NCBI GenBank assembly: GCA_973895155.1
Contig: OZ316897.1
Span: 17,218,058-17,282,057, forward strand
Origin: Marsupella aquatica
Lineage: Eukaryota > Plantae > Marchantiophyta
Reading direction: 5' to 3'
Length of the DNA stretch: 64,000 bases
The position numbers and the translations under genes were made by a program. Shown here piece after piece: positions 31,690 through 61,200 of this stretch (position 1 is its first letter; the number at the start of each line of letters is the position of its first letter). The notes below the pieces were generated by a model that was not told the DNA's origin, made no database searches, and was given only the letters and a program-made list of their open reading frames with translations.

Positions 31690-32875
31690 TCTTTTTTCAA
31701 GAAAGGACTGAACCAGTCCCCTCCAACATCTTGTGTACTTGATGGATCAAAAGTTGTACTAAGGACTTGACCGGGGCCCTTCAGATGTTCACCGTCAGAA
31801 ATCCAAGAAACACAGTAGTTGCGCAACAATTGTTGTTGGGTCCGCTTCTATTACACAAGGCATCACTATCAACTCAGGGTGCCACAAACCTACAAAATGA
31901 TAGTTTGGATAAAACTAAATATTTTGTCGAATGACAATATGGATATGGTTTGAGCTGAAAATTGTTTGGTATGATCTCTAACTCGGGGGGGGGGGGGCAT
32001 TTAGATGGGTGTGGCGGAACACTTCCAAAGTTTTGTGAAAAAACACATAGAACATGTTTTATTGACTGGACGGCTTCAAAGAACACATAAGCTTATTTAA
32101 TTGTCTCTTTAGGGGTTTTTAGTAAAAAATGGTAAAATTTAAAGAAAGAAAGGGTTTTGCAAAAAACCATTTTTCACTTATAAGTTAGGGGGTTAAACAC
32201 TAAAACATCGCATGCGATGTATGGCCCTCCACATAGTGAACCCCCCCCCCCCCCCAAAGATCTCTAATGTTCAAGCTACCTACTTGACAATGTTGGGACG
32301 TTGTGGACACCTCCAGCACTCAATCCTATATCCTCAAAAGTCATGATTTTACAAACTGCAATCTACAATTATATGCTTTTCTTTAAGTACGTAAAGCAAA
32401 GTTTGAACCAAAATTGAGCTAGGCACCTTCTTTTGAAATAAGTTAACAGGTTGTCAGTCAAGCATGAAAGTATTATATTTTTGCAAAACAAAAGACTTAA
32501 GAAAATTTCTAAATTGTAGATTTTGAGAATTAAAGATAGAGTGTTAGTGGACGTCCAAAAAGTCCCAACATTTTTCAGTAGGTAGCTTGAACTCAAGAGA
32601 TCACACCAAACAATTGTCACCTTAAACCGGATCCATTTAGTCATCCAATAAAATATTAAGTTTTATCAAAAATTAGCATTTTGTGGTGCCCCAAGTCAAC
32701 AATGGTGCCCCTATGTAGTAAAGTTGTACCTGATGGAAACTGTTGCGCAGTTAGTGTGTTTTTTAGACTTCTGACAGCCAACCGTCCAAAGGGTCTGGTC
32801 AAGTCCGATTCCATCTATGTGGTCCATCAAGTCCACAAGATGATGGAGGGCCTGGTTAAGTCCTTTCCTGGAAGA
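31690..32875. mobile_element. Degenerate foldback element with long inverted arms
   Basis: 31690-31981 plus 32268-32370 is the reverse complement of ~32500-32875. Examples: AAAGGACTGAACCAG/CTGGTTAAGTCCTTT and TCAAGCTACCTAC/GTAGGTAGCTTGA. No clear TSD. Confidence 0.75.
31982..32258. mobile_element. Nested 277-bp MITE/MULE-like insertion with poly-G/poly-C ends
   Basis: 9-bp TSD GATCTCTAA at 31973-31981 and 32259-32267. The opposite arm of the host foldback (~32587-32607) shows the empty site. Confidence 0.75.
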
Positions 32876-36789: not shown

Positions 36790-37320
36790 TGGGGAATTTA
36801 CCAAAACAGATTTTTACAAACATGTCCCCCAACCTACCCAATAGTTCTAATGTGCACCCCAAACAAAATTCATTATCAACTTGTCCCCCATTTTGGATTC
36901 GGGTCAGTATTAACTCGTATACAGTTCCTATTGCCATGTGGTAAGTCACTATTGGCTAGCCTTAGCTCACGGCCCCCTTCTCCTTCCTTCTCCTTCCCCA
37001 CTGCGTTTTTTTGAGTAAAAGTGAGGGCCAAAGTTTTGGGTTTTTGTGAGGGGAGTGAGGAGTGCAAAACAACATATTCTTGCCCCTCTCGGACCTGCGA
37101 TTGTGCCCTCCAACGGGGAAGGGGGGCTGGGGGCGGGGGTTGTGGCTGGTTAAGGCTAGCCAATAGTGGGTTCTGACATGGCACCGGGAACTTGTACACA
37201 AGTTAATACTGACCTGAATACAAAGCAGGGGACCGCTTGATAGTTAATTTTGTTTGGATGACACATTAATAATATTGGTTAGTTTTTAGGGATAGATTAG
37301 AAGAAAGCTATTTCCTTCCT
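36790..37320. mobile_element. Degenerate foldback/MITE
   Basis: ~36820-37000 is inverted relative to ~37110-37300: GGTCAGTATTAACT/AGTTAATACTGACC and CACTATTGGCTAGCCTTA/TAAGGCTAGCCAATAGTG. Ends are approximate. Confidence 0.7.
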
Positions 37321-40610: not shown

Positions 40611-41877
40611 CTCTGTATTCCCAATTGAGGTGCCTAAAATACCTTTGTTCCTCTCGTATTGGAGAGCCGGCAGTCGTCTTCATACAACTGCGATCACTCA
40701 CCGTAAGCAGTGAAGTGAGCTTTTTATTATCAATGTACATCTACACAAAGCAATGAAAGTTCGCAACATGCAAGCAAGAGACAAACCAAGAAGTCCTTTT
40801 AAAACTCAGCGAATTGGCTGCTCAAGCACACAAATGTTTTCTCCAATTCAAACTAAATTAAGTGCACTTCAAACGTTTCCTCCAACATTCCCCAACTAAG
40901 CCAAATGTATTCAAAAAGATCCGACTTTTCTTCCGATCAGTAAATGAGCAAGTTATAGCTTTCTAGAGAAGGCTGGGGGAACTTGGGAGCTCACACCGGT
41001 ATATATTTCCGCATAAACCGGGAATAGGGAGAACATGTTACTTTCTTCTTGCCTATCAGGTAAATGAGCAAGTTCTAGCTTTCTAGAGAAGTAGCAATCA
41101 CAATCGAGTCAGCTGAAAAACGCACGACAAGCATACACAGCATGGTTTCTGATGTTAGGCTCCTGGTGTTACACGTAGGCCTTATCCCCATAGAGGCTCT
41201 GGAGGCGGCTCCACCGTAATAAAGCCATGAGAGCCTCACTCTTAAGGGAGGGTCACCGCAAAACGCGGAACTCCGCCTCTCGGTTTGGCATGCTCTGTTC
41301 CTCTCGAAAGATATCGAGATGTTGCTTTTTTGGGTGATTGAGGCTACACTCATGGAGTTCACTTTGACTTGGTTGTCGTCTAGAGTCACTTTATCAGTTG
41401 AGTTACGGGAAACGAGCGCTTGATGTCACACCATCTACAGGATGAGCTGACTACAAGACCTGCTTTACAAGGCCGTGAAGCTCCCTGCCTAATAACATCG
41501 ATGTGGCATATGTGGATGCAATGCACCTAAGTCACCCACGATTTGCGAGAGGGGTGAGTGCACAACAACCGTAGAGGACGTGCAGCTCAGAAAGAGGAGA
41601 CAGGTCCCGATTGACATGTCCAGGAGCTTGGTGTACCATTTTGAAAATCTGAAGTGGGCTTAGAGCAGTAACCGTCCATCTCGCTAGCCTTTCGATTTTT
41701 GTTGCTAACAAAAGCATTGTGCTGACGACCTTAGACTAGGATTTGGGATCACTGCTTTCAAAGAGGAGAGGGGTTGAATCCTTGGCTCGTCGAAGTCTCA
41801 TGTTTTTCCGCTACTAGAGTTGAGCACCCACATCAGTCTGCTGCTAGATTGCTGCTGCTGCTGGTGTGGGAAGCCAA

Positions 41878-43164
41878 ATGGCAGGGCAAGCAGTGCTGCA
41901 TTGTGGTCAGCCGCTGGCCTCCGTGGATGCGCTGCTAAGAAATGCTGGGCCATCTTCGTCTTCGTCGACCTCCTCGTCTTCGTCTTCGGTCAATTTCGCA
42001 GCTGCAGCTCAGAGGAGGAGCTCTCGCTCGCGAGTAGCGCAGTCCTCTTTCTGGGGCGCTCTGGAGTCCGACTCTGGGCCCTCCTACTCCATCTTCTTGC
42101 CGGCTGAGAAGCGCTCATTACTATGTCAGAGAGCAGCAGCAATTGGGGGCAAATCCACCATCGCCACCACAATTGTTGCAACTGCGGCTATGTCCGGCAC
42201 GCCTGTGAGGAATACCAGCATTCTCGTTGTGGGGGCAACAGGCACGCTGGGCCGGCAGGTAGTGCGTCGAGCACTCGATGAAGGGTATGATGTCCGCTGT
42301 CTGGTACGATCCAGGCCCACTCCAGCTGACTTCCTTCGTGATTGGGGTGCCATCGTCGTCAACGGTGACTTGAGCAGGCCAGAGACTCTGCCAGCCACTC
42401 TAGTGGGTATCCACACCATTATCGACTGTGCCACTGGGAGGCCCGAGGAGCCCATCAGGAAGGTGGATTGGGACGGGAAGGTGGCTCTGATACAGTGTGC
42501 GAAGGCCATGGGAATCCAGAGGTTTGTGTTTTTCTCAATTCACAACTGCGAGAAGCATCCTGAGGTTCCTCTCATGGAGATCAAGCGGTGCACTGAGAAG
42601 TACTTGGCTGATTCAGGGCTCAATTACACGACCATAAGGTTGTGTGGCTTTATGCAGGGAGTGATTGGACAGTATGCGGTGCCCATTCTTGAGGAGAAGT
42701 CTGTTTGGGGAACGGATGCTCCCACTCGTGTGGCTTACATGGACACCCAGGATGTTGCTAGATTGACGCTGACGGCATTGAGGAATCCGAAAACAGAGAA
42801 GAAGTCGCTGACCCTGGCTGGACCGAGAGCTTGGACGACTCAGGAGGTGATCAGCTTGTGTGAGAGGTTGGCAGGGCAGGACGCTAAGGTGACAACAGTA
42901 CCAGTAGGGATGTTAAAATTTACCAGGATTTTGACCCGGCTCTTTCAGTGGACATCTGATGTTGCTGACCGCCTTGCCTTTTCAGAGGTGCTTTCAAGTG
43001 ATGCCGTTTTCTCTGCTCCCATGACCGAAACGTATGGATTGCTGGGTGTCGATCCGAAGGATACGACCACTCTGGAGCTGTACCTACAAGAGTACTACTC
43101 ACAGATCCTGAAGAAATTGAAGGAAATGAAAGCCACATCGAAGCAGGGTGATTACTACCTTTAG
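41878..43164 (+). CDS. HCF244: HCF244/Ycf39, atypical short-chain dehydrogenase (NmrA-like) PSII assembly factor, intronless CDS
   Basis: Ser-rich transit peptide, then GTPVRNTSILVVGATGTLGRQVVRRALDEGYDVRCLVR...PADFLRDWGA, HPEVPLMEIK, WTTQEVISLCERLAG and ADRLAFSEVL. Confidence 0.96.
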   Translation: MAGQAVLHCGQPLASVDALLRNAGPSSSSSTSSSSSSVNFAAAAQRRSSRSRVAQSSFWGALESDSGPSYSIFLPAEKRSLLCQRAAAIGGKSTIATTIVATAAMSGTPVRNTSILVVGATGTLGRQVVRRALDEGYDVRCLVRSRPTPADFLRDWGAIVVNGDLSRPETLPATLVGIHTIIDCATGRPEEPIRKVDWDGKVALIQCAKAMGIQRFVFFSIHNCEKHPEVPLMEIKRCTEKYLADSGLNYTTIRLCGFMQGVIGQYAVPILEEKSVWGTDAPTRVAYMDTQDVARLTLTALRNPKTEKKSLTLAGPRAWTTQEVISLCERLAGQDAKVTTVPVGMLKFTRILTRLFQWTSDVADRLAFSEVLSSDAVFSAPMTETYGLLGVDPKDTTTLELYLQEYYSQILKKLKEMKATSKQGDYYL

Positions 43165-45023: not shown

Positions 45024-46601
45024 CTACCATCTGTCCCTTGGTCTCTCAATCGTTGCAACTTCAGGTCTTTGAAGTCTGCTTTCCGTCAGTCTAGGGCGTA
45101 AGTCTTTATAGGTCTTCGCTAGTTTTCGTGGAGATGGAGCATAAGTCCTAACAGGGATCTCTGCGTCATTCATTGAACTTTCATCACCTTCTCTTTCGTC
45201 CTCATCGGACAATTCATCGTCACTCTCACCTTCTTCATCCTCATCAAATTGGTCATTCCAGTCGCCATCTTCATCTTCATCATCATCGTCCTCATCCTCA
45301 TCACCTTCTTCGCCTGCATTTTCTGATTTCATGGCTTTGGTCCGAGCATGCACAAGCGCGCTCAGGCGCTCCCTTGCTAAAACCAGAGGATCCTTGTCTA
45401 CGAGTTCTGAACCTTGGTAAGCTTCACGAAGGAAGACGGAATCCCTGTGGCCCTTGAATGAGACGTAAAACATTTCAGGATGGCGGATGAGCGTAGCCCT
45501 GATTCTCTGTGAGAACTTGAAGTCCTTTTTGAAATGGGTGAGATGGTCCACCAGGGTCTTCTTCTCCAAAGTCATGCTCAAGAGCTCATGCACAGTTGCA
45601 CATGCTCTTTTTTCTGCTTGTATAGAAGCCGGATCCAAATCTGTTGCATCAGAATAAGGTGACACGTACGGAATCTGCTGAAACCTCAATGCAACTACTC
45701 TGTCCTTCTTGGCAAGGTTCAAACCTTTCGGCAGATTCAGCCTTTTGTTGCTCATTTGTGTTGGAACTATTTCCTCCCCATCTATGACAATTCTAGTTCT
45801 ATCATCCACTTTGTTAGCCTCCGCTGCTGCTTTCTTCTGTGCAGCACAAATCGCCAACAGCGGGTCCCAAAAAGTAAGCTCTAACGCAGGCCCAGTCTCT
45901 GTTTCAACAAGCTTAAAATACTGGGGGTATTTAGGTAGGATACTAGTTCTGAAGTCCTCAGGTAATCCCAAATCATTTTTTATGTGGGCAATTTTGTCGA
46001 TCGTAAGCCTCTTATCCAAGGACATCATCAACAATTTCCTTAGCTTTTCTACGTGGAATACTTCCAAATTTGCTTTTATCCTCAGCTCCTCTTCGTACTG
46101 AGCTTCAGCCTCCTCTGTGAAGCGCACGTACATTACATTGCAGCCTTCCTCGTAAACCTCGAACACAGCCGGATACTTGTTTAGGAGAGCGATCACTCGC
46201 CTCCTTCCCGTCAATGCGAAATTCTTCCTATACTTTCCCAGCTGCAGCAGCGTCATCGTCCGGCCCGGCTGCTTGATCAGAATGTCCTTGATCTTATTGA
46301 CAATCCTCACCTTCTTCTCTCTTTGGACGACATTATCAAATGCGGAGTCCTTCCTGCGCTTGATTTTTGCCCGGGCGCCTAGCGATCGGCTGGGATTCCA
46401 AATCCCATACGCAGGGAAGGTAACACATTGCAAGCTTTGTGTGCATCCGAAAAAATTCGGGCGAGTGATCCGGACCGTGGTCTCGGAGGTGCAGGGCAAA
46501 CCTGATGATGACAGCACGCCGCTCCTACCAGCAGCCGAGAAGAAACGAACCGCCGAAGCTGCTGATAGCGCCCTCGTCAGTGACAACCTGAACGACGCCA
46601 T
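45024..46601 (-). CDS. WTF1: PORR-domain organellar RNA-binding/splicing factor, WTF1 type, intronless
   Basis: KRRKDSAFDNVVQREKK, KLRKLLMMSLDKRL, DLGLPEDFR, GPALELTFWDP, PYVSPYSD, AEKRACATVHELLSMTLEK and RHPEMFYVSFKG, followed by an acidic C-tail. First ATG at 46601. Confidence 0.9.
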   Translation of the reverse strand: MASFRLSLTRALSAASAVRFFSAAGRSGVLSSSGLPCTSETTVRITRPNFFGCTQSLQCVTFPAYGIWNPSRSLGARAKIKRRKDSAFDNVVQREKKVRIVNKIKDILIKQPGRTMTLLQLGKYRKNFALTGRRRVIALLNKYPAVFEVYEEGCNVMYVRFTEEAEAQYEEELRIKANLEVFHVEKLRKLLMMSLDKRLTIDKIAHIKNDLGLPEDFRTSILPKYPQYFKLVETETGPALELTFWDPLLAICAAQKKAAAEANKVDDRTRIVIDGEEIVPTQMSNKRLNLPKGLNLAKKDRVVALRFQQIPYVSPYSDATDLDPASIQAEKRACATVHELLSMTLEKKTLVDHLTHFKKDFKFSQRIRATLIRHPEMFYVSFKGHRDSVFLREAYQGSELVDKDPLVLARERLSALVHARTKAMKSENAGEEGDEDEDDDDEDEDGDWNDQFDEDEEGESDDELSDEDEREGDESSMNDAEIPVRTYAPSPRKLAKTYKDLRPRLTESRLQRPEVATIERPRDRW

Positions 46602-47294
46602 TGCTGCCAATCCTCAAAACCCTAAACCCTGCCAATCCTCCACAAATCTCCTCCACCTCCTTGTTTTCAGTTTTCCGCACTCAATATTCCCGAGCGAAAT
46701 GAGGGCTCTCTCTATAAAAAGTGCTCCACCTCCGCAGGAGAAATCGCTCGGGACGGGATGAAACGGTGGTGGGATTCTCAATTTTTGTCAGTTGCTTGTT
46801 ACACCATGACAATCGGGAGTCCCGATTGCCGCAGACAGATTCAAGTGAACTGCAGGCGCCGTCATTGCAGAAATTCCAGTACCACAAATTCAAAGATCGG
46901 TGAATTCAAAGATCACCGAATGCTCAAAAGGCCCTCTCTGTGCTTTGCCGACAAGGTTTGGACACAATCTCTGTGCTGGGTTTCGACACAATGTTTCAAC
47001 CAAGTGTGGGACGCAGCGAAAGAAACCGAGACAGAGTGTGAGTAAATCGATTGAGCTCAGATTTCTTTGTAGGACCTTGAGAAAACTTGCTTCGACCTGG
47101 TTGCGAACGACTTGCACGAGACAGAGTAGTAGTAAACAATTGATGGAGCTCACATTGCTGTGCGTAGTTTCAACACGTTGCTTCAACCTATTAGTACTAG
47201 TGAATGGAGCAAAAAATAGCTCGCTCCCACAACCAAGTGGCTTTTGGTCCTATTACCACTAGTGTGGTTGCAAAGGAATTGAGCAAAAAGAAGG

Positions 47295-47580
47295 CCCGCT
47301 CCCAAAACCAAGTGGCTTTGGTTGGCAGGGGCTTAGTCTAGAACCTAGAGGTCCCAGGTTCAATCCCCCCACATGCAAGGGTGTGTGTGTCGGGTGTAGT
47401 GGCGGGATTGAACCCTTCCACATGCAAGGGGGTGTGTGTTTGGGGTGACTGTAATGATGGGAGGTTAGGGTTTAGGGGTTCAGCCCCTGGCTAGTGGGAT
47501 TTCGTTCAACCCTGTCTCCCTCCTGGTTTGGGTATGACCCCCTTGTAGGCTACCCTATAGAGGTGCATGCTCCAGAGTCT
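47295..47580 (+). mobile_element. tRNA-derived SINE-like sequence
   Basis: B-box-like GAGGTCCCAGGTTCAATCCC at ~47348-47368, preceded by an A-box-like CCAAGTGG segment. No full cloverleaf. Internal duplication of CCACATGCAAGGG(GG)TGTGTG. Confidence 0.45.
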
Positions 47581-48039
47581 ATTGCCTATTGGATCGGTCA
47601 GCTTTTGGTTTTGGGGCCAAAAACGAAACTTGCTCCCAACGAACAAGTGAGATATGAGAGGAGAGCTCTGTAGCCTTTGGACAAGTTGAGAGGTCCGAAG
47701 TTCCTCTACGCTGCAGGTATCTACTTATCCTAACTAGGTAATAGCAATGGTAGGCTACTCTTAATAGTGTGTTTTCTTCCTTTGAAACCAAAGCAAATTC
47801 CAAGAAACGGAGGATATATAATCTATTCTGGAGCATGCAATTTTATAGGTAACCACAAGGGATTCGGCAGGACCCAGACTAGGGAAGAGTTTTAAACCAG
47901 AGCCCCAAAGCAGACCATTGAAGGGTTGACGAGTAACTAGTACTCGCCCCACTACACGCCACCCACATACATACCCTCCACTCCCCATGTGAAGGGGGGA
48001 GTGAACCTGGGAACTCATTATTCTAGGCTAATCCCTTGG

Positions 48040-49780
48040 CCAACTTTTTTTTTCTTCTTTTCTGTTTTGGAAAAACTATGCAAGGCCCGTCAAAACCACG
48101 CAAGGAAGCATGCAGAACGCCTACCCAGGAAGGACAACAAAGGGCACAAGCGCTAAAAAGGCCAAAAAGCTGGCAAAACAAACCAATCAACTAGTCAAAT
48201 GATAGGTCATGAAGAGCCACAACAAGGTAGTTGGCTCACAATCCCAAACAGTCTTCAATGGTTATTCTATCTATCTCTACTCTTAGTTGATGAATTTCAA
48301 GAGTTCATCTAATTCTGAGTTTTATCAATATGGGTCAAAATGTTCATCATATCATTCATGGGCATGATTCCTTGGGTCTACATCTACGTACTTTGCTGAC
48401 TGTTTTCAAATAAATCAATTCATTTACGCTCACCCTTAGCCCAAAGAGACATTGTGTTTTGTCCTACTCTTCTCTTGAAGGTGAGTTCTCTTCCACTCCA
48501 TTCCAATCTTCTATCCACCATTTTCAACATCAATTAATGTTGAGCGCAATGGTACTTTCAAGACCCTTCCTAGGATTGAGCACCTCTAAGAGCTCACCAA
48601 TGGGCATATTGAAGTTGTTTAGCCTTCTTGTCAAAGTGGCAAATATCAAACATAGATCTCAGGTGCATTTCCATTGTAAGACAACCCATCCAGGTAATCT
48701 CCCAATGAAGCAAGTAGCGGCATTCAGCTTGTTCCAAATGCCAGTGCATATCTCCATCAGCAACACAACAAGACCAAGTGTCCACTTTTGCCTATGAACG
48801 GCAAAAGTTATTGCTTCATACAACAACTTTGTGGAATCTTAAGCAAATCCGATCATTGCACCAATCCTTGTACTTCATTCCATCTTTCAGTGATCCTTGT
48901 GTGGTTGAAGAACAAGTGCTCAATGTCCTCAAACCGCTACCACACAGACCGTTGCAAACTCCCCAATGGCTCACCTTGCTGTTCGTTAAGAAACCATGAT
49001 TTAGCAACGCCCACATGAAAACCTCAACTTGGGGAAGGACCATCCACCCCAATTTAACCCACTTTTGTTTCCAGCTTGTGAGATGAATCACTTGTCCCAA
49101 TTGTTGGTGCAACTTGGTAACATTAATTGTGGTTGGCTCGGTGCCGGCTTGGTGTTTTTAACTAGGCCACAATCTATTGGAGAAAGTCTAGCCACGGTTC
49201 CTTGCTACCCTTTTGATCCCATTGCCAACCCTTGCAATCATAAAGCTCTGTAGCAATGTGGCTAGTTGTCTATCTTAGTTTGTGGTAGAAAGTAGTGAAC
49301 TTGGTCTATCCAACCATTATGGTGCTCCTAATCTGTGGACTGATCTTGCTATTAGGAATTATACAATCACCCTGCAACAACCTAAGGTCAGACAAGTGCC
49401 TAATCTTCCTACTGGCCTGAATCTCCTTAACTCCACCCCTCATTGTTCTGTCACGTAATTATTGCAGAGATGCAGCAAAATGATTTGCTCAATGGAAATT
49501 TTGGTAGAAAGCATACCATTGCCAAAGTTGAATTTGAGGTGTTCAAACCAGCCTCCCAACAATACTTTCACTATATAGGGGAACTTTTGACTGCCAGTTA
49601 CTCAGTATGCACTTGAGCTAAACCTTGGCCAATTGACATAAGCAAGTTGCTTTTCTTAAGGCCTATTGTTTGGAAGGAAGCCTCTAGAAGACCGAGACTC
49701 TCAAGGACTAACTGAAAATGGGAGTGCCAATGAAAACCATGGATTCAGGGTATATATGGTGAGCCTTTGAAAGTAGCCAC
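48040..49780 (-). mobile_element. Degenerate 5'-truncated L1-type LINE fragment (post-RT and zf-RVT region)
   Basis: Minus-strand fragments KLGWMVLPQVEVFMWALLNHGFLTNSKVSHWGVCNGLC and LHWEITW resemble the zf-RVT region, with many stops and frameshifts. The T-rich run at ~48044-48068 would be the 3' poly(A) tail. Confidence 0.65.
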
Positions 49781-51199
49781 TAGAAATGAATTGTTGAATC
49801 AATGAACGGGCAATGGCCTTGAATGTACTCATCTCTATTTACATTCAAAGAATCTTCAAACTTTATTATAGCAATAAAAGGATACTTGTTAAGGCCTCTT
49901 GTATTTATGTTTCTTCTTTTTAAGAAGGGAAATCTATGAAACCCCAAAGAAAGGAAACTGTTAGTCACAACATTTGAACTTTAGACCGATGAATCTTGAC
50001 TCAAGTGAGCTACCACACAACAATGCCTCTCTGGGCTAAGGGCATCTTGTAATGAGTAAAGGAACTCCTGTGTAGAGTGAAAACTCTAGACCGTGACTTT
50101 GGGGGCAAAATTGAAATTGGGGGTGCATCAAAAACAAGGATTGGGGGCAGGGTGAGTCTCTCAAATTGGCCAATTGAAAACTGAACCAATGAATGGGCAA
50201 TGGGCTTGAATTTACTCACCTCAATTTACTTTCAAAGAATTGAACCAGCATTCACACTAGTGTGTACTAGGGTAGTTACCAATGCACGGCTTGGAAGGGT
50301 TTACCTATCTAACTATACAATCATGATTAAAAACTACTCTTTAGGGCCTACTGTCCAAAGTTAATCTTCTAGACGCAAGTCTAAAGACATGGGGAGTTTG
50401 GGTATAGGGAGTCCTGCATGTGCATAAGCATGGATATTCAGACTAGTGGGTTGTAATCCCCAAGGCTGGTGAGCTCGAGGGGGTTATAGCCATGGGTTAG
50501 CTAGCAAGCATAACCCCCAACACTCTTTAAAAAATCATTTGAGAATCAACAACTTTGGGTGAAGAGTATGACACTTGGAATCCACTCTAGCAAAGTTAGC
50601 AAGGGATTAGAGCATCCCCACCAATCACGATGAACTCAACTTGGTGTTGTGGTCAATGGTGTTGTGAGTAGCAGGCCCAATTAGGAGTCCAGACCAGCTC
50701 CTGAATTGTTGCACCCGGGGTTGCACCTAATCAATGGGGTAAGATGTGTTGGTGACAGCTTGCTCTCAGATAGTTCACTTGCAGATGGCAATTGTATGAA
50801 CACTTTCACAATTTACTTCAAACAGGGACTTCCAAGCTTGAAGAAGACATACCTCACCGCACAAGCTTTATCACAGGAAAAAATTGATTCCCCTTCATTG
50901 ATCCAGGCTTTTGTGTGCTGCATGCTAGAAAAGGCTAAACTTGAGATAGTGATCATAATACTTGGACAAATTTTGATCAACAAATATTTGCAATGGAAAT
51001 TCAAGATGACTCCTTTGCAACAATGGAGGAGGAGATTGAAGTTGAAGATGGAAGAAACCCAACAAGAATGGGATGATGACCAAACCCGGTGGGAAAGCAT
51101 GACAGTCACAGGCCCCTTGGCATGGACAAACCAAAACCATGGTGCATCAGGGGAAAAAGAAAGAGATGCATCAAGGCCAGACAAAGGTTACAATATATA

Positions 51200-51851
51200 A
51201 TCAAGATAGAATTGTCAGCAATCAATGCATTCCGAAGAGTTATGTGTATCGACAAGCATTTAAAGAGGTGCTACATTACAAATCAACCACGGTGGCAAAT
51301 CCATGATTGAGTGTGTGCATATGACCTATGTTTCATCTCTAAGTGAGATTCAACAAAGGTACTTGACATGTCCTCCACACAAATGACCAGACCTTTGCAT
51401 ATGCTGGGGCATTGGTGTGTCTTTCCAAGGCTTTGTATACAAGTATGTGAGAAATAGGGAGAGCACAACTGTGAAATCATTGAGACAGTTATGTGTTACT
51501 GATCAAATTATTTTTTAGGAGCATCTTTGACAGCCCACAAAGGAGGATGTGGAGACTCAATTTTGGATCAATGAGAAGCATGGATTCTCTCAGTCTCATT
51601 TTGCTTCACTTGATTGTATGCATTATAAGTGGGAGAAATGCCCAATCGCTTAGCAAGGATTATTCACCAACAAGGACGTGGCCAAACGTATTATGCTCAA
51701 GGCTGTTGCCAACCAATCCATGCATGTGGATCTAGCATGCCCACTTTGGATTGTTCTTGGGGGGGCAAGGGGGGGGGGGCAATGTCATGAATATGCTTGC
51801 TTGGTCTCCATTGATGAACAATCCGCTGCAAAATGCTCATCATGTTCTACG
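51200..51851 (+). pseudogene. PIF/Harbinger (Pong-like, DDE_Tnp_4) transposase pseudogene, interrupted by the tyrosine-recombinase element
   Basis: Translates as KHGFSQSHFASLDCMHYKWEKCPIA*QGLFTNKDVAKRIMLKAVANQS...HAHFG...SPLMN. This matches the family pattern GSIDCMHWxWKNCPxAWxG...IILEAVAxxDLWIWHAFFG...SPL. Possible continuation (DVNGH; IIIHNAMV) at ~56020-56415. Confidence 0.75.
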
Positions 51852-51858
51852 TATAGGG

Positions 51859-52003
51859 TAACGACGATCTGGTCGACCGTTACTGGGGTGTAACGGGGCG
51901 ACCGGGTTCTGACACAGGTGTGATCGGCGGTAGCCGATCACGCCTGGGGAGGAAACCGGGAGGATCGGTACACCCCAGTAATGGACGGCCTGGATCGTCG
52001 TTA
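51859..52003 (+). other. ~145-nt imperfect hairpin at the left end of the element
   Basis: Nested paired blocks TAACGACGATC/GATCGTCGTTA, CCGTTACTGGGGTGTAACG/CGGTACACCCCAGTAATGG, CCGGGTTC/GAAACCGG and CAGGTGTGATCGGC/GCCGATCACGCCTG, around a GGTA loop (51929-51932). Confidence 0.85.
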
Positions 52004-52451
52004 ACGTACGTAATCGCGATCTAGGTTTCAGGTTCACCGGCTCATGAAGGTTAAAACAATTCCAGGTCATTGGATCGAAGAGACGCTGTATCGGGACCGT
52101 CAATTTGATCGTAGCGAAGGTGGGAGGGGGTATTCTGCAAATCGGGTGGGCTGCAGCTATTTCGTCATGACGTTGAACGAGGTAGAGTTGGGAGGCAGCG
52201 AAGCGCTGTGCGATCCGGCGGGGCAAGGCCAAGCTCGGAGACTACAGACTACAGCGATGCGCGATCCGGCGGGGCGAGGCAATGCAATGGCGATGGTGGT
52301 GGTGAAAGCTTGGAGATGGTGGCGGGATGGAGCGCGGCGCGTTTGAGCTGGTTTCAAACCAAACGCGACTGTGTTGCAACCAGGGGGAGCCTTACATTTT
52401 CAGTTCTATTTTGTTTGAATTTTTGCATGCGCCATGCATTGTTTGCAGATC

Positions 52452-54847
52452 ATGGATAGCGGGGTGGAAGCAAATGCAACATTGAAGTGGAGCGTCGTTA
52501 TATCGTTCGATTGCTTGTTGTTGAGTTGTAGTACTTATGCATTGCTACGGATGTTGAGTAGTCAAATGGCTGTAGCGACTAAGCAACTTGTGTCGTTCGG
52601 AGTGATCTGTGAAGTAGCTCGTATGAAGATGGAGGGAGAGTTAAGCGATGAAGTTGTTCCTGGCGATTATTCAGACGCTGAGAGGGAGATGTTTTATATG
52701 GATGATTTGAGTGTTGGTGGGGAGACTTGTGACCTTTCAGAGTTTGATTCGGCCACTGCATTTGACGAGGCATCTATAGAAGCTGTTTCTTTGGATGTTT
52801 TGTCTACTTTGGTCGAGCCTGATCGAGAGCTTGTCAATGAGGTTGAAAGTGGGCTGCAGGTTATTGAGCAGAACCATTTGGATCAAGCGGCTGCAAGTTC
52901 GTCCACCTTGAGGCAAGATCTAGACGTGGAAGTAAGCCTGCCAGGCTTGAGACTCCTGCCTGATCCTGCTTTAGAGGAAGCAGGCCGAGGACTGGAGAAG
53001 TTGTCGTCCGAACGGAATGATCAATGGGCTGTTAGGAGGGCAGACGGGTTGCGGAAGGGGATGGGGTGGGACTTGAGTATTGCATTTGGAGACTTGTCAC
53101 TTGTGCAGGTGGACGAGTTGCTCAGCAACTATTTTGCTCGAGCAGTGAAGAAAGACGGTAATGTTTACCCATCATCTTCACTCATGAACCAAATGAATAG
53201 CTTCAATCGAGTGTTGAGGCGAGGGAGTGATCTGAGATCGCTGAAGGGCTCTTCTTACATTATGCCGAGAGATTTCAACATCAACTCACATCCGGCTTTC
53301 TCAAGAACTCGAATGGTGCTGAAAGCTGCCATCAAGAAGTCTCCAAGGGAGGGGGCTAACAAGAAACGAAAGAAGGTGAGAGTTGTCAGCTTGCATTGCC
53401 TTTAAAGATGTCGTGTGCTTGTAGATCTATTCTGCTGCTTCTGACTTTTGGATGTTTAACTGATCCAGGTTGAGATATTGACAGAGGAGCACGAGAAATC
53501 TATTATGGCTGACATTGACCACCAAGTGACAAGCAGCCATGGATGTCAAAAGCGCTTGGCATTTTACTGTTTGGTCAGGTTTGGCATCCGTGGAGGTGGC
53601 GAGCTCTATGACCTCCATAGAGGCGACTTATCTGTATGCATTGACAAGGCAGGAAGAAGCTATGTGCAGTAAGTGTTTTCTGTTCAGGTGATATTTATGT
53701 TTATGAGATGTAACTTTGTTGTATCTGTTTCTTGTGTGCCAGTGATACTAATAAACATTTGAATTTGTTCAGGTTCGAGGAGCGCCAAAGTAAGAATAAC
53801 TCTTACACGCTCGATCGATACAACGAAGAGCAGTTTAGAAAGATGTATCATAGTTACGAAGTTGATTTTGTGCTGACTATTAATCAGTACAAACGCCATT
53901 TATCTCCAGAAGCAGAGTCGTCAAAGCCTGACCTCTTTATGCAGGCGATTACCAATCCTGCCGGGAATGTTTGGTATAACAAAGTCCACAAGGTAGGGAG
54001 AGATACTGCTGCTCATTGGCTTAAGAATATGTTGGCGCTGGTGGGGCTGCCCCCTAATCTTTTTTCCAACCGAACTGGAAGGACCACACTAATCTCTCGA
54101 CTAGCTGCAAAAGGAGTCCCTGATGTGGTTGGTATGCTGATTAGTGGGCATCATTCAACCAGAGGTTATTCTCATTACGACAGAACTCAAGAACTTAAGA
54201 TGGAGGCTGCAGCCCTGGTCTCTGCTAGTCCAGGCCTTGATTATGAGAAGGCTCTTGGACATGTTTCGAAGTCTTTTGTCCAGGAGAAGCTTGTTGGATC
54301 ATCCGAGGGTCTGAAACCCCTTGTTGACAGGGTGAACGAAAAGGCTAATGTGCAGCCTTCACTCATGACACTTGTACAGGTATGTTCATGAACTTTGATT
54401 TGTTTGTGAGTGAGTTTCTTGGTATTGTTTCTAATGGAAATTTCGTTGGTTGGCAGGGATGTACCGGTTTGAGTGGAGTACTAGGAGAAACATCAGCAAG
54501 AGCTTCACAACAGGTTTGTTTCTACCTGTTTCAACTTTCGGTTGCTGCCTGTCTAGCAAGACTGAGATTAATGTTTGTTTTGTGTGTGGCAGGAAGGAAG
54601 CCACGTTGTTGGGGATATGTTATTACAAAGAACAGATGCTGCCAGATGGGATTCGTCCTATGACATAATTGATTGGGTGGGCGAGTTGTTGAAGCAGAAC
54701 CCTTTGCTTCACGAGAGAATTTCAGGCCCACCACTAGCCAGAGTTTCTGTGGGTAGCAACATCTCTGGAAACTCCTTCCACAATTGTTCAGTATCAATTA
54801 AAATTGTCAAGGCAAGGGAGGATGAGAAGGAGGACGCAGGCCCGTGA
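52452..54847 (+). CDS. Tyrosine recombinase, DUF3504/Crypton type, 5 exons, reading frame intact
   Basis: Exons: (start uncertain, 52452 or 52623)-53375, 53469-53668, 53773-54379, 54457-54513 and 54593-54847, with four short GT-AG introns in consistent phase. Motifs: YFARAVKKDGNVYPSSSL (core-binding), FGIRGGGEL (catalytic R), ERQSKN (K), SNRTGRTT (HxxR position), ISGHHS (H), GYSHY (nucleophile Y), and C-terminal FHNCSVSI as in animal DUF3504/Crypton proteins. Confidence 0.85.
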
Positions 54848-55204
54848 TATTTTAGTTAGTGATATTTTACTTAGTTTTCAGATATTTCAGTAAAGTAGCA
54901 TTAGCAGGAAATAACAGTAAGTAGAAACATTGTACATATAAGGAATTTACTGATATGGCTGTATCGGCTGAATCAACACACCTATGTACAGCAAGAATGG
55001 TTTTACTATTCGATTAAACTTTGCATGACTCCCTTGAATAAAGTGGAATTTTTTAGTACTTTACTTCTTCCAAATCACTATTTGGGTTCAATGCTAAAAG
55101 TGAATAAAAGTTTTACGACTGTGAACTCAGCATACACAAAGCTGAAACATCAAATCATACCCTATTCTGAAACCCCTTGTTGACACAAGCCTATTCCGGA
55201 CCTA

Positions 55205-55395
55205 TTGAAGGATGGAATATGCCAATTGAATGTACACGTATGGACCCACGTATGGATGGAAAATGTGTTTTGGATGGAATATGTTTAAGGTGGATGAAAT
55301 ACTAATTTTCCATCCGGTAGTTATGGGTTCTGTAGCTGCATTACGGGATTCCGTAGCCAGGTTACAGAGTTCTGTAGCCCATGTTACAGAGTTCC
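55205..55395 (+). repeat. Subterminal arrays: GGATG(G)AA motif x4, then 3-4 ~21-bp palindromic units
   Basis: GGATG(G)AA at ~55210, 55254, 55272 and 55292, with an inverted copy at ~55308. Units: GTTATGGGTTCTGTAGC, ATTACGGGATTCCGTAGC, GTTACAGAGTTCTGTAGC, GTTACAGAGTTCC. Confidence 0.75.
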
Positions 55396-58027
55396 AAAAC
55401 GTCAGATGTGTCAAGAAGGCAGATTACGAGAATACAAGGGACCCCCAAAATAGGGTTACACGCAGGTAACCTGAAACCAAGACCGCGATTACGAGCCCTA
55501 TGCTAGTGCTTTGCACTGTGCAAGGAGGGCCAGGGCATTTATGGGGCAAATCAAGAGCAAATGCGTGCGTCAGTGCAGTAGGCCAAAGTCAAGTGGAGAC
55601 ATGGAGTGGAGGGCGAGGCTGGACTTGCTTGGCTGCTTTCTGCTTTCTGCTTTCATACATTGGGAGTCATCGTTGTTGGGACGGAGGCATCGGTGGGAGG
55701 CTGGGAGCATTCACAAGGGAGGGAGATGGATAAGGTAGAGGGGGGAGGCATAATGAATGCACGGAGTGGAGGTTTCGACATGGGGCCAGTATTGAAGATT
55801 GTATTGTCAGGCATGGGAGCCCTAGACAGAGACAGAGAGGATGGGCCGATGCGAGGTGATTGAAGACGGTATTGTCGGGCATGGGAGCCCTGGCACGTGA
55901 ATCGGATGGACACGCAAAATCTGATGCCTGTATCTAATGGTCAATTTTGATTTCCGCCGAAATTGAAATTTGTAACGGGACGAAGGACGAAATTGGCAGC
56001 ATTGCCTATTACAGTGTTAGATGTCAATGGACATTCGTAAAGGGCTAGGTTTTATTTTCTTTCCATCAACTCACCACAACACTTCCCACATAAGATTTGC
56101 CCAGGAAAAATGGCTGTCCCGTGGTTGTGTATTGGTACAATGGTGTGTCTTATCTTACGTCCACCTTCGTAGGAAGAAATTTTAAGTAGCACTCCCCTCT
56201 CTTGCACTCGCACAAACCAGTGCCCTCATAGGGAACAACCAGTTCACAAGTAATGAGTCTGGTTGACTTATCAGGTGGGGATGGAAAGCAAAGTCTATCT
56301 ATATTATGTTTAGTACTATCCTATTAATAGGGCATTGTGGAATGCATACTGCCATGATGACGGATGGCCTTAGCTTGAGTTTTGACGAGCTATTATTATC
56401 CATAATGCTATGGTAACAAAGTTAATACACTTAATGGTCTAAGAGAATTTAGTGCTTACTAGTCAGTAAAAGCGAGAGAAGATTTCATAGTTAGTTATCC
56501 AAATCTTGAATGTGCATTTTTCTCCACAAATGTACTGAAAATTACAAAGAGAAAAATCACCATAGCCTTTGAGTATTGTAAACAGGCCACACTTGACTCA
56601 ACCAGCAATTCGTTGAGTTCAAAATTTGTCAAAATCCACCCTGTTGAGAAAGGTTTGCCACAAAGCATAGCAAGAGCTTTCAAATCTCATTAGCCAGTCT
56701 CCATCCAAGGCACAGGGCCCATTGGCAACCATGTAGCTGCTCTCCTGAAGTCTAGGGAGATCTAACACTGTAAAACAAATCTAGGGAAATGTTAATAGAG
56801 AATATTTCTAGCAATTTTGGGGCCTCAAGAATGTGAGCCTTTATACAAATGGAAGATACTATTTAAGTTCAAAGTAATGTTTACAAATGGTCCATACAAG
56901 TTTTTGTCAAATATTGTGGTTCAGCCATTTGCCAGCCTAAGTGAATTAAATAACCCTAAGAAAAGTATTGGAACTCCACCTCATCCAGAAAGCTTTGCAA
57001 GGGGCAAGTCTCCCACCAAATCTGAGGGCTCTCTCAAATCATGGCAGACCGAATGGTCAAAATAAGTCTATAAAATTTCAAAGGGTGGTGTCAAACCTCA
57101 GATTAAATTGGACCTTGATTACAGTAAGTAGTTAAGGTTTGGGACAGAAAATTTATGTACTACCTATTCAATTCACGATCCATAACTTTTTGCAATATAC
57201 AGGCTAGTGAAAATGAAATGAAATTTTCACATAACCCTTTGAAAAAGGTGTAGCCACCATCGGTAAGTATGAAGCTTTTAAACGCAAGATTCCAAACATC
57301 CAGTAGTCTCCAGACTGTGGTAGTGTACACGTTACAGTCTACGTAGTACTACTACAGTAGTCTGTCTCAGCGCTCACCGCTTACTCACCTCACCACGCCT
57401 GACTCCCTGACTGACCTGTCTGTCTGCCTGTCCGCCTGCCGCCCAGCGTCGTGACTCCTCGTTCGCTCGTTCGAATTGGAATCGAACGAGATCCGATCGT
57501 TGACAGAACGAACAATAATAACGCCTCCACCTCGATAAACGTACGGCACTTTCGCCTCGCCACCAGATTTGCGCGGCCTTCGCCATCTCCGCCGTCCACC
57601 GTATTCCAATCCAGCGGTCCCGAGAACGCCACCACGCCCCCGTTCCGAGGTTCCGAAACACAGCAACACAGCATGCAGGCCTGCAGTAGTAGTAGTGGAA
57701 CGGGGGGACTACGACCGTCGACGGGAGCCGCCGGTCTCGAGCGAGCGCGCCGCGAAAGGAAGAGGAGAGCGGAAAGAAGGGGTGCTCATTCGGAGAGCGC
57801 GGACGGAGGATTTCGAAGATCGACGGGGGAGGTGTGAGTCGAGCGAGAAAGAAGAAGGCGAGGAAGGGGAAAGAGAGGAAGGGGGGTGACGGGGTGATCG
57901 ACTACGGTAGAGAGGTGAATGGAGGGGAGAGGAGGGGAGAGGAGAGTGCGAGAGAGAGTATGTCGACGAGGAAGAGGAGGAGGCGGACTGTACAGTAGTA
58001 GTAGTAGGAGGGACGGACGGGCGGGAG

Positions 58028-58200: not shown

Positions 58201-58298
58201 CTGGACTGGGCTGGGCTGGGGAGGCAGGGTGAATGGGTGCGAGGAAGAGGGAGGGAAGGGGTGAGGGGGCTAAAGAAGGAGGAGGGGGGGGATGGGCC

Positions 58299-61200
58299 AT
58301 GGCGGACAAGGACAAGAAGAAACTGAAGGTCATTCTCAAGCTTCCTCCGAAGTCTTCGTCGTCGGCCCAACAGAAATCATCTGCAGCAGGAGGAGGAGGA
58401 GCAGGAGCAACAGCAGCATCGGGAGGAGGAGCGAAGGGTGGTGGTAATGCTTCATCGGTAGGAGGAGGGGGTTTCACTTTTTCGGGGTCGGCAATAGGAG
58501 CGTCGCAGCAATTTGGTGTGGGATTACAAGATCAGCAAAAGCGGCAGCAGCAGCAGCAACAACACCGGAGTGGCAGTACTGGGAGCAGCAGAAATGTGCA
58601 ATCGGGTCAAGCAGCAGGTCGGCATGGGGTGGTGCTTCTCCCGGGGGCTACTGCTGGAGCAGCAGGAGCAGCGGCATCGTTGGGACATACACTGTTTCAC
58701 ACTCCTGGGTCTTTTAGCTCTGTGCGATCTAGTAGTAATTCATCGGCTGCGGGCCCTTTTTCTTCTTCTGCAGCAGCACCGGGAGCAGGAGGAGGAGGGG
58801 GAGGATCGGCATCCGCTCTTCACCATTTGTCACCTCCTGGCTCCTTAAGTCAGGCTCCAACTCCTCTTAAGAAGAGAAAGTTTAAGGCTGTGGAGCACGC
58901 TGGAACCTTTGGTGTTGGAGCGCTAGTAGTAGGACGATCTACAAGTTCTGGTACTGCTGTTGCCTCGGACGGACCGGGATCTGGTAGGGATGCGGGAGGA
59001 GGAGCAGGAGGAATAACGAGAGTTGGTGGTGGAGGAGGCGGAGGAGGAGCAGAACCTGGAACGGGTGGAGCGGGAGGAGGAAAGAGAGCACATGGGGGAG
59101 GAAGAGATGGAGGAGGAAAAGATGGAGGAGGAAGAGAAGGAGGTATGGGAGCAACAGGAGGGAAAACGGGTTTGCCGCCAACCCCGAGTGCTCCGTTTCC
59201 TCTTAAGAAGTCGCACAAGGTGTGTTTACCTTCTTCAATGGTAGAACATCCTTGATTCGCTTCCTCGATTGAAGTTGCTATGTAGATGTCCTTCTTGAGC
59301 GTTTCTGCGGTGAGTGCTCATAACGTGTCTATGCTCTCTCCAAACTAGAGTTTTCATGGGAACGGTGTGAAACAGACAGCCTGGGTGGAGGCAGCATGAA
59401 CTGGAAGTTGGACAAGTTGCTGGGAGAACGAGGTTTGCTTTTGTTGGAGTCCGGCGGGTCACTTTCATCTCGTACTACACTCAACTGCACGAAAGATGGA
59501 AACCCTAAGTTTCGGCAACAATTTTCCTGCGTCGTGTGTATGGAAGCTACAGGAGGAACGGATTAGACCAGTACTGGTCGAGTTCAATTTGGTGCCGTTG
59601 CACTCCTTGTACAACTTCTCTAGGGTATCGTCCATTTCTGTTGGCGTTCGCCCGTTCTGATCCGGTGACTTGTGGTTCTTCCTATATCGCAGAAGCAAGT
59701 TAAACCGTCCACTCGAACCGATGGACCTCAAGCACACAATCCTTTCGCCGGTAAGTGTGGCTCAGGATCATTGACTTTTCTAAGAAGTTGCGATTATTTT
59801 CTTTTCCTTCGACGACGCCCTTGTCGTTATAGCTAGCTTATGGCACGGTGATTTTAAGCGGTGCATTTGTTGCGTCATTTTGTCCCTGCAGGAGTTATTA
59901 TGCCAGAAAAAACTCCATCAGAACCGCTCTCGAAGATGATGTTGGAAGGTGTCCTGGAGAAATTACAAAAGTAAGGACAGTTGAAAACACTTTTTCTATT
60001 ACCTTTCGGTGGAGCTTACCGCTTTTGTTAATTGGACTATGATCTTGCGACGGCTCGAACATTTCAGTTCCTTTGTTTAAGTGTGTCGTTGTTATAAAAG
60101 TATTTGTGTCCAAGACTTTCGTCATTAGATTTGAGACGTTTGTCTAGGTGGAGATCGCACTGTATCTGTGCTCTCGAATCATCCAGTAACATTTTACCAC
60201 CTGGTGTTTTCAGGAAAGATACATATGCAGTTTTTGCTGAGCCGGTAGATGCAACTCAGGTAAGCTAATCTCCTTACTCTGTACTCGGTTGTGGAATAAC
60301 CGTCCTAGTGAATTCTTAGGCCATGTATTTGCATATCTCTATACATATAAATTGGGTATTGTAAAACCTCGTAGTTGTTTATATCATATATGGGAGTGGT
60401 TTCTTAGAGTGGGTGTTTACCTTGGCAGGTGCCTGATTACTACGAAATCATTAAAGAGCCCATGGATTTCGGCACTATGAGGAAGAAGATAAAGAAAGGC
60501 TCGTATAAATCAGTCGAAGAATTTGAGGTTTGTTGCCTGCCTGTTTGTTTTACACTCTTCTCGGTGGCTTCTAAGTTATGCTGAAGTCTCGAAAGAAAGT
60601 TGGGATGAGCCTTCGCTTACTAGCTAGCAATGGTCGGAGCATGCTCTTTTCTTTTTTCTTTTAGTGTTTTGGGGTTTCGATGTCTGTTCCTCTAGCTGGA
60701 AGCTTCTTTCTTTTTGTATAAGATTGTCGGATTTACTGAGTGGCGGTTATTTTGGCTAATGTTCAGGGAGATATATACTTAATTTGCAGCAATGCCATGC
60801 GTTACAATGGGCCAGAGACTATATACTACAAACAGGTAAAGAATCGTCCATCCAAGAGATTGCGAGATTACTTCGTTTACCTGGGTATGTGAAATGCTAG
60901 ACGAAATTTGTTTTGCAGATGTGCAACACTTTTGCGTTGAAGCCTGCATATTTTAGGATTGTAGGATAATGGAAAGTCCGACTCCTCTAAATATCTATGG
61001 AGAGTTTGAAACGCTGCCCATGTTCATATATTAAGCTACTGAACTATCTGAATTAGGGATGGAAACGATTGAGTGGGTGTTCAGTCTCTCCCGTTCATCT
61101 AGGCAAAGAAGCACCATCCTAGTCAAATTATTTGATCATGCATTTCATGAGCAGTATACCACTGTGTACACCTTACCGGGTTCTCACTTCTTCAATTTGC

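Follow-up and report, generated by a model that had tools for sequence, protein, structure and literature searches.

A Crypton-type DNA transposon with an inverted copy of its joined ends in the liverwort Marsupella aquatica

The element and its copies

The window analysed here is a 64-kb stretch of the genome of the liverwort Marsupella aquatica (contig OZ316897.1, positions 17,218,058 to 17,282,057). Toward its right end lies a mobile element, called the Crypton element below, which carries a gene for a predicted tyrosine recombinase and has the letters TACG at each end. It lies in a dead transposase gene, directly beside a second and shorter repeat. Its termini and copies were studied in contigs assembled from public sequencing runs (X1, X2, X3 and X4), and the limits that these contigs set are as follows.

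51848..55493, plus strand: whole Crypton element, 3,646 bp, with TACG at each terminus
51848..51851, plus strand: left terminal direct repeat TACG, the putative recombination core
55490..55493, plus strand: right terminal direct repeat TACG, which doubles as the first letters of the adjoining second repeat

The same 4-bp direct repeat thus stands at both termini (51848 and 55490). Two X1 contigs diverge from the window upstream of 51848 and two diverge past 55494, with low mutual agreement (0.62 and 0.68). The left-flank contig stops at 51877 in X1, X3 and X4, which is 30 letters inside the element, and the branch was therefore placed at 51848. The flank contigs of X1 are identical to the window (0/1,878 and 0/1,756 differences). 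Inside the element, five X1 contigs carry 10 differences in 1,774 letters and others carry 20/269 and 58/360, pointing to one near-identical sister copy, about 99.4% like 51848–55493, plus older copies. Summed contig depth is 31–62 inside the element and 13.5–18 on the X1 flanks, figures that were not used as copy number. The Crypton element is a dispersed, multicopy, low-copy DNA transposon whose termini are common to contigs with unlike flanks. The initial annotation, made from the letters alone, had proposed looking for copies with the same ends and different flanks, and had named a single-copy host gene as the outcome that would speak against a transposon; the X1 contigs show both the shared ends and the differing flanks, and the element is multicopy. 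No second copy lies within the 64-kb window. At the right end, a short duplication at 55464–55491 was seen in one contig each of X1 and X2.

The recombinase gene

52452..53375, plus strand: exon 1, an acidic, weakly conserved N-terminus followed by the predicted core DNA-binding domain; alternative ATGs at 52434–52629
53469..53668, plus strand: exon 2, with catalytic Arg349 at 53589–53591
53773..54379, plus strand: exon 3, with Lys382, Arg475 (at the His position), Arg478, His501 and Tyr510 (54176–54178)
54457..54513, plus strand: exon 4, 57 nt, the least supported exon; like intron 4 it was placed by splice signals and frame alone
54593..54847, plus strand: exon 5, with the FHNC tail, which aligns to P0001, and the stop

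As had been read at the outset, five exons joined over four GT-AG introns (93, 104, 77 and 79 nt) encode one stop-free protein, of 680 amino acids or 621–686 depending on the choice of ATG, and introns 1 and 2 are backed by homology. The alignment to P0001, a protein of the liverwort Calypogeia fissa, passes uninterrupted over both of their junctions. Among the best 150 of 791 profile matches, counted by eye, about 25 have an edge at the position of intron 2 and about 15 at that of intron 1; because matches start or stop there, both introns seem to be old in the family. For the intron-3 donor, diverged contigs match up to 54381 and are unlike beyond it (four contigs in X3, five in X4). Diverged copies likewise keep their likeness in exons and lose it in introns (joints at 53393–53467 and 53676–53770). 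Among 30 of the listed coding differences between copies, 15 leave the residue unaltered, where random changes in the core would be expected to do so in 23%; this is a weak signal from a biased sample.

Predicted protein and fold

The catalytic columns of the protein are Arg349, Lys382, Arg475, Arg478, His501 and Tyr510, and five of the six are canonical. The order of tyrosine-recombinase residues proposed earlier holds in that all six named motifs are present, with the correction that the first Arg of NRTGR occupies the His position of the HxxR motif. Among motif matches in all fetched proteins this position is Lys in 43, His in 11, Arg in 8 and Thr in 2, and it is Lys or Arg in most of the plant group described below. 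Such a change of this His can be tolerated in other tyrosine recombinases and in topoisomerase IB. The R-H-R-Y tetrad that marks CryptonA and DUF3504 reads R-R-R-Y here.

Two details of the earlier domain assignment did not stand. The tail, FHNCSVSI, had been called DUF3504-like; in relatives the DUF3504 domain maps to the catalytic region and not to the FHNC tail, and an FHNC-like tail occurs in 10 of the 38 relatives examined. In the Pfam part of the proposed profile comparison, there was no match to DUF3504 or Phage_integrase in the four exons tested, in P0001 or in P0002. Within the plant group only P0077 scores above the Pfam DUF3504 cut-off (31.7 bits), and P0006 and P0023 fall below it. 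The GCR1_C domain, a marker of CryptonF, gave no Pfam match in exon 5, P0001 or 33 relatives.

The fold was predicted on P0001 with AlphaFold2 (47 aligned rows). The model has 263 core residues with a predicted local distance difference test score (pLDDT) of at least 90; a prediction from the single sequence (pLDDT 32.6) was of no use. The best Foldseek matches of the model are Tre/Cre (E 1e-6). VIA-align superposes it on a Cre variant with Z 17.9, a root-mean-square deviation of 4.1 and 292 aligned residues, and on XerA with Z 17.7, so that the tyrosine-recombinase fold anticipated from the letters is borne out in this relative. A phmmer search of P0001 against PDB sequences returned a chance match only. 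In the ESM Atlas, P0001 is nearest to animal DUF3504/Phage_integrase clusters (score 0.98, TM 0.78). A three-row profile led by exon 3 aligns in hhalign to animal-type DUF3504 rows with a probability of 99.0% (E 6e-18), and the spliced protein matches a hidden Markov model of 15 animal-type DUF3504 rows at E 4e-64, the rows having first been recruited by a profile that included the query. The predicted product is a Cre-like tyrosine recombinase akin to those of CryptonA/DUF3504, and catalytic competence is predicted for the family.

Terminal hairpin and junction copy

51848..52011, no strand: imperfect palindrome (hairpin), 164 nt, from the element's first base on; loop at 51929–51932
51933..52034, minus strand: inverted internal copy of the joined ends, reading right end, TACG (52012–52009), left end; like the internal complementary region of DIRS elements
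55468..55493, plus strand: right-end arm, 24/26 identical to the reverse complement of 52009–52034

The left end of the Crypton element folds into a hairpin with a predicted energy of -61.6 kcal/mol, which is beyond chance (z -10.0 for 51840–52060, 0/200 shuffles). The 26 nt that abut this palindrome are the right end in inverted orientation, with 24 of 26 letters identical; none of 1000 shuffles and none of 1773 other 34-mers of the window score as high. Palindrome and inverted right end together mean that the minus strand from 52034 to 51933 reads right end, TACG, left end, and this stretch is called the junction copy here. Aligned to it, the joined ends give 111 columns and a score of 113, which falls to 74 when host flank replaces the right end, and the best of 1000 shuffles scores 34. 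In stretches of equal length, joining the ends changes the predicted folding energy from -66.1 to -88.7 kcal/mol.

The initial annotation had described a segment with structured ends, and that structure is real beyond chance, though its limits are 51848 and 55493 and not 51852 and 55501. It had overlooked the junction copy, which is the most unusual feature of the element. Contigs of other copies also span this region, and the two letters at 51964–51965 in all aligned X3 and X4 contigs would strengthen the hairpin, from -61.6 to -69.0 kcal/mol. The element has no symmetric terminal inverted repeat; what it has is an asymmetric 26-bp inverted repeat and the terminal hairpin, neither of which is reported for Cryptons in the texts consulted. 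Rfam returned only sub-threshold matches on the hairpin. No junction-copy architecture was found in the Crypton literature, on which the supplements of PMC3212892 (termini), Repbase and Dfam may bear; here and below, papers are cited for the portions of their text that were available.

By the published definition (PMC8969392), the junction copy qualifies as an internal complementary region like that of DIRS retrotransposons, in an element that has no reverse transcriptase. The Crypton element could on this ground be a non-autonomous DIRS-like retroelement that carries a recombinase only, with its internal complementary region, and uses a reverse transcriptase supplied in trans. We consider this very improbable. 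Four introns are kept on the sense strand, two of them at family-wide positions, the protein is DUF3504-like, and there are no long terminal inverted repeats. The element holds no further open reading frame longer than 92 amino acids, and no reverse transcriptase or ribonuclease H was found in 33/33 relatives scanned, a scan of recombinase proteins with the other reading frames of those loci outside it. A Helitron or Replitron reading of the ends was also dropped, since a recombinase is encoded and there is no HUH protein (PMC10288648).

Insertion site and neighbouring repeat

51480..51847, plus strand: decayed Harbinger-type transposase, 5' part; reaches further left and is cut at 51847
55490..56013, no strand: second repeat, about 520 bp, non-coding, high-copy; TACG start, TACA end, short hairpin, no terminal inverted repeat
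56014..56200, plus strand: likely continuation of the Harbinger-type gene, with a VNG motif; assigned at motif level

The Crypton element sits in a dead Harbinger-type transposase gene, which contains stops and frameshifts and matches Pfam Plant_tran above the cut-off at 51537–51650 (E 1.7e-6). On the right, 56041–56172 gave no Pfam match; the VNG motif at 56014–56200 is one that we take to be a Harbinger-type family motif. The segment with the element had been said to cut this transposase. The relic is indeed cut at 51847, and the interruption is made by the Crypton element plus the second repeat: removing the former alone does not rejoin the gene, and removing both restores the expected order of motifs, with a frameshift. 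The right end of the second repeat (56013) was placed from this rejoined frame.

For the second repeat, 41 contigs in X1 begin at 55490/55491 with unlike flanks, and depth is at flank level after 56023. The left flank of its copies tends to ATGTT plus one letter (three of the four runs, low agreement), and the same is found at the host flank here. Its start occurs only once in the window. It may be a non-autonomous element dependent on this TACG core.

That the transposase gene rejoins only with both units removed would also fit one composite element, 51848–56013, with the second repeat as its right end. Two X1 contigs leave at 55494 and 41 enter at 55490/55491, so that each unit occurs alone, and the composite is extremely unlikely. 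A joint from 51847 to 56010 or from 51847 to 55494 is absent among 15 of the 16 joints between contigs and window. The simplest order of events is decay of the Harbinger-type gene, then insertion of the second repeat, and then insertion of the Crypton element at the TACG on the left edge of that repeat.

Relatives in non-seed plants

The closest database relatives are P0001 (61% identity over exon 3) and P0002, both from Calypogeia fissa. Identity to P0001 is 61–64% over residues 161–577 (62% for 161–310) and 28–30% outside them (28% for 1–160). With its nearest recombinase relatives in a liverwort and a PORR gene nearby, the host is a land plant, as the letters had suggested; the Plant_tran match of the Harbinger relic is a second mark of a plant. 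In a HMMER profile search, 1.84 billion representatives yielded 791 matches at E 0.001 and 37 at 1e-30; word-index protein searches returned 2, 2 and 5 proteins and missed the relatives found by HMMER. Species known near the top of the listed matches are from Calypogeia, Marchantia, Riccia, Ceratodon, Adiantum, Diphasiastrum and Selaginella. Members of the family are spread widely over the non-seed plants (liverworts, a moss, ferns and lycophytes) and are not confined to this genome. Among 30 of the best 150 matches looked up (16 of the 30 without a species name) there was no seed plant or alga, and one distant match was a fish.

A quick IQ-TREE tree was built from 39 rows (40 were given and one, with a short core, was dropped); it is unrooted, drawn with a midpoint, and holds no CryptonF, S, I or V references. 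One branch, with a Shimodaira-Hasegawa-like approximate likelihood ratio test (SH-aLRT) value of 100, separates 24 rows (the Crypton element, 16 named non-seed plants and 7 without a name) from 15 others, the animal-type rows, of which 12/12 tested pass the Pfam DUF3504 cut-off. The Crypton element groups with P0001 and P0002 (SH-aLRT 100). The catalytic columns are kept across the plant group; the lycophyte rows have lost the catalytic residues and occur as several isoforms. The Marchantia gene Mp5g04240 (P0026/P0157) keeps most catalytic residues, falls in one 90% cluster spanning two species, and already bears the automatic name of a "DUF3504 domain" protein in UniRef. In the tree, P0026/P0157 group together with P0069 (Diphasiastrum) and P0076/P0082 (Selaginella), with SH-aLRT 91. 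Going by their sequences, the Marchantia and lycophyte DUF3504-like genes are possibly domesticated, and perhaps old. ZMYM and KCTD1 were domesticated in animals, and the catalytically dead lycophyte relatives together with the conserved gene of Marchantia suggest similar cases in plants.

Such relatives make it conceivable that the recombinase gene at 52452–54847 is itself a domesticated host gene that lies among repeats by chance. The catalytically dead, multi-isoform lycophyte relatives and the two-species Marchantia cluster lean that way. Against it, there are several copies with sharp common ends and unlike flanks, the Crypton element sits in a dead transposase gene, all five canonical residues are kept, and the protein lies far from the lycophyte/Marchantia branch, which leaves domestication at this locus with a probability close to negligible.

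Among other members of the plant group, P0017 and P0154 (JGI records, 819–843 amino acids, on contigs of roughly 10 kb) are long proteins with all catalytic columns kept, and P0154 occurs on 12 contigs. Two scans of metagenome contigs for loci of related families, one of them for these two proteins, found none. P0013 (Adiantum capillus-veneris) is a gene model that fuses pentatricopeptide repeats to a recombinase, probably an annotation fusion.

Age, activity and proposed mechanism

The ratio of observed to expected CpG is 0.74 in the Crypton element and 0.21 in the Harbinger relic, and this weaker depletion, together with the sister copy of about 99.4%, indicates that the family has been mobile in the evolutionarily recent past. 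With the relic cut and its CpG ratio lower, the earlier view that the element is younger than the dead element it interrupts is upheld. The insertion at 51848 itself appears to be present in three runs under two organism codes, with slightly different flanks (the contigs cross its left limit by 30 letters, one fewer than the threshold for bridging); since two organism codes share it, it is not a fresh insertion.

We read the Crypton element, with a probability of roughly 0.7, as a low-copy 3.6-kb Crypton-type DNA transposon of a non-seed land plant that recombines TACG with TACG to form a circle and reinserts at a TACG-like site. The recombinase would join the two terminal TACG cores, and the circle would then insert at another TACG-like target. 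A circle route has been proposed for Cryptons and is supported in a Chlamydomonas CryptonF, and the circle has been demonstrated for Starships.

The junction copy may be a working part of the element, which is the least certain step. On a single strand it would act as a splint that brings the 5' and 3' ends together, and in the circle it would be part of a complete palindrome, about 220 bp long. Its favoured role would be to let the element be copied out without loss of the donor, and the second-ranked role would be to offer the recombinase an additional binding site 5' of its gene. Further options are a second inverted site in the circle, with amplification like that of the 2-micron plasmid, or a folded single-strand substrate like those of integrons. 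In its full form the splint version would have a recently mobile branch of plant Cryptons copying out as a single strand, its ends held by a DIRS-like splint and then joined and reinserted by its own recombinase, with the same branch giving rise to the domesticated Marchantia and lycophyte genes. We regard this full version as unlikely.

Several observations weigh against the reading as a mobile Crypton with a working junction copy. Only two plus two flanking contigs back the termini, the consensus of the flanking contigs is a mixture in which TACG at other insertions is unreadable site by site, and no circle, excision or empty site was seen in the assembled public-run contigs. The protein has Arg where HxxR has His, and the fold was modelled on P0001 instead of the element's own protein. 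The arms of the hairpin are just 74% complementary, and letters at 51938–51940 in X3 and X4 contigs would weaken it (-55.1 kcal/mol) unless the partner arm changed too. Within this family the junction copy has been seen in a single group of samples, and a search for one in the second repeat was not significant (370–725/1000 shuffles as good). There are nine coding places where all aligned X1 contigs differ from the copy at 51848–55493, and six of these alter a residue. At residues 185, 298 and 509 (residue 509 adjoins the catalytic Tyr), P0001 has the same residue as the sister copy, which marks the copy at 51848–55493 as the altered one. The family had been called possibly active, which was not supported: the insertion is not a fresh one, and three conserved residues of this copy are altered. 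An open frame in this copy does not imply a working copy, and it is probably a slightly decayed sibling in a recently mobile family.

Some of these points would fit an ordinary Crypton that inherited its hairpin and junction copy as accidents without function, left by an old snap-back or by recombination of a circle into an end. The drift of the hairpin arms, the variant set that weakens them and the second repeat without a junction copy all favour such an accident, and the Cryptons described in the available text of PMC3212892 and PMC8969392 need no inverted repeats. The junction copy, however, covers the element precisely up to its two ends and links these by the shared TACG, its right-end part is still 24/26 identical although 3.4 kb away, and contigs of other copies cover the region too. 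An accident is possible, and we hold it to be a minority explanation, behind the reading as a Crypton-type transposon that moves through TACG–TACG recombination.

Other features of the window

45027..46613, minus strand: PORR gene, Pfam E 6.7e-105; host gene
41848..43161, plus strand: NmrA-like NAD(P)-binding protein; host gene
58233..59255, plus strand: low-complexity first exon, no Pfam match; host gene

Other repeats were noted as well. At 48433–50042, 23-nt inverted repeats stand 1.56 kb apart with TTA/TAA edges, and a high-copy repeat stops at 50036; this is likely a Harbinger-type non-autonomous element. An element resembling a miniature inverted-repeat transposable element lies at 1852–2844 (inverted arms of 262 nt, 91%), with smaller ones at 32259–32602 and 36831–37285. 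A 45-nt inverted repeat at 47326–47370 and 47994–48038, in which ARAGORN found no tRNA, contains what we take to be a tRNA B-box-like motif.

Comparison with known systems

A literature search found no land-plant Crypton/DUF3504 family (Repbase and Dfam entries may bear on this), in line with the initial annotation, which knew of no well-characterised one. A repeat table for Dracaena lists "Crypton" (24 hits, 1,719 bases; PMC6294377), as an automatic label and not as a described family. What is new is the open gene, both ends, the TACG core and the junction copy of a land-plant Crypton. The route by which Cryptons multiply is still debated as a problem (PMC9977147), and the junction copy offers a concrete part with which to probe it. 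If the splint version were true, it would provide a mechanism for copy gain, link Cryptons structurally to DIRS retrotransposons and supply a site-specific recombinase native to plants. Genome engineering could make use of a Cre-like enzyme from plants that works with a 4-bp core.

With its recombinase gene, its TACG termini, its several copies and no reverse transcriptase, the element is the Crypton-like tyrosine-recombinase DNA transposon that had been proposed. It falls within the broad Crypton definition and lacks two CryptonA markers, Pfam DUF3504 and R-H-R-Y. Terminal direct repeats of 4–6 bp are a Crypton hallmark (PMC3212892, PMC8969392), and for animal Cryptons the available text of PMC3212892 reports that no terminal repeats were found.

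The CryptonA/DUF3504 elements of animals (Kojima and Jurka 2011, PMC3212892) are alike in having a lone recombinase gene with a related catalytic domain, no reverse transcriptase and no long target duplication. The plant element differs from them in its land-plant host, its long branch (SH-aLRT 100), Lys or Arg for the His of HxxR and a score below Pfam DUF3504 detection, and from the animal Cryptons of that paper in that it has a hairpin and a junction copy and its 4-bp terminal repeats are clear. Glomhoppers, a CryptonA subfamily of Glomeromycota (PMC13465315), also carry a DUF3504-type recombinase outside animals, often with introns, and are predicted to be active. They are fungal and are reported to keep R-H-R-Y; they were compared by description, no Glomhopper having been identified among the tree rows.

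CryptonF-1_cRei of Chlamydomonas (PMC9977147) is an active algal Crypton with CACCG ends, a CAYCG target and copy gain. It shares with the plant element the green lineage and a short terminal motif that matches the target, and its copy gain is unexplained in the text available. It differs in being of the CryptonF type, with a GCR1_C domain, a 5-bp CACCG core and observed activity. DIRS-like retrotransposons (PMC8969392, PMC6681497) likewise have a tyrosine recombinase and an internal region complementary to both ends, whereas the plant element has no gag, reverse transcriptase or ribonuclease H and no long inverted terminal repeats, keeps its introns, and has its complementary region at the 5' end, where it forms a hairpin with that end. 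Starships (bioRxiv 10.64898/2026.09.21.753150) are also eukaryotic tyrosine-recombinase transposons with a 4-bp core, and theirs is the demonstrated circular intermediate; they differ in being giant, cargo-carrying and fungal, with a DUF3435 enzyme.

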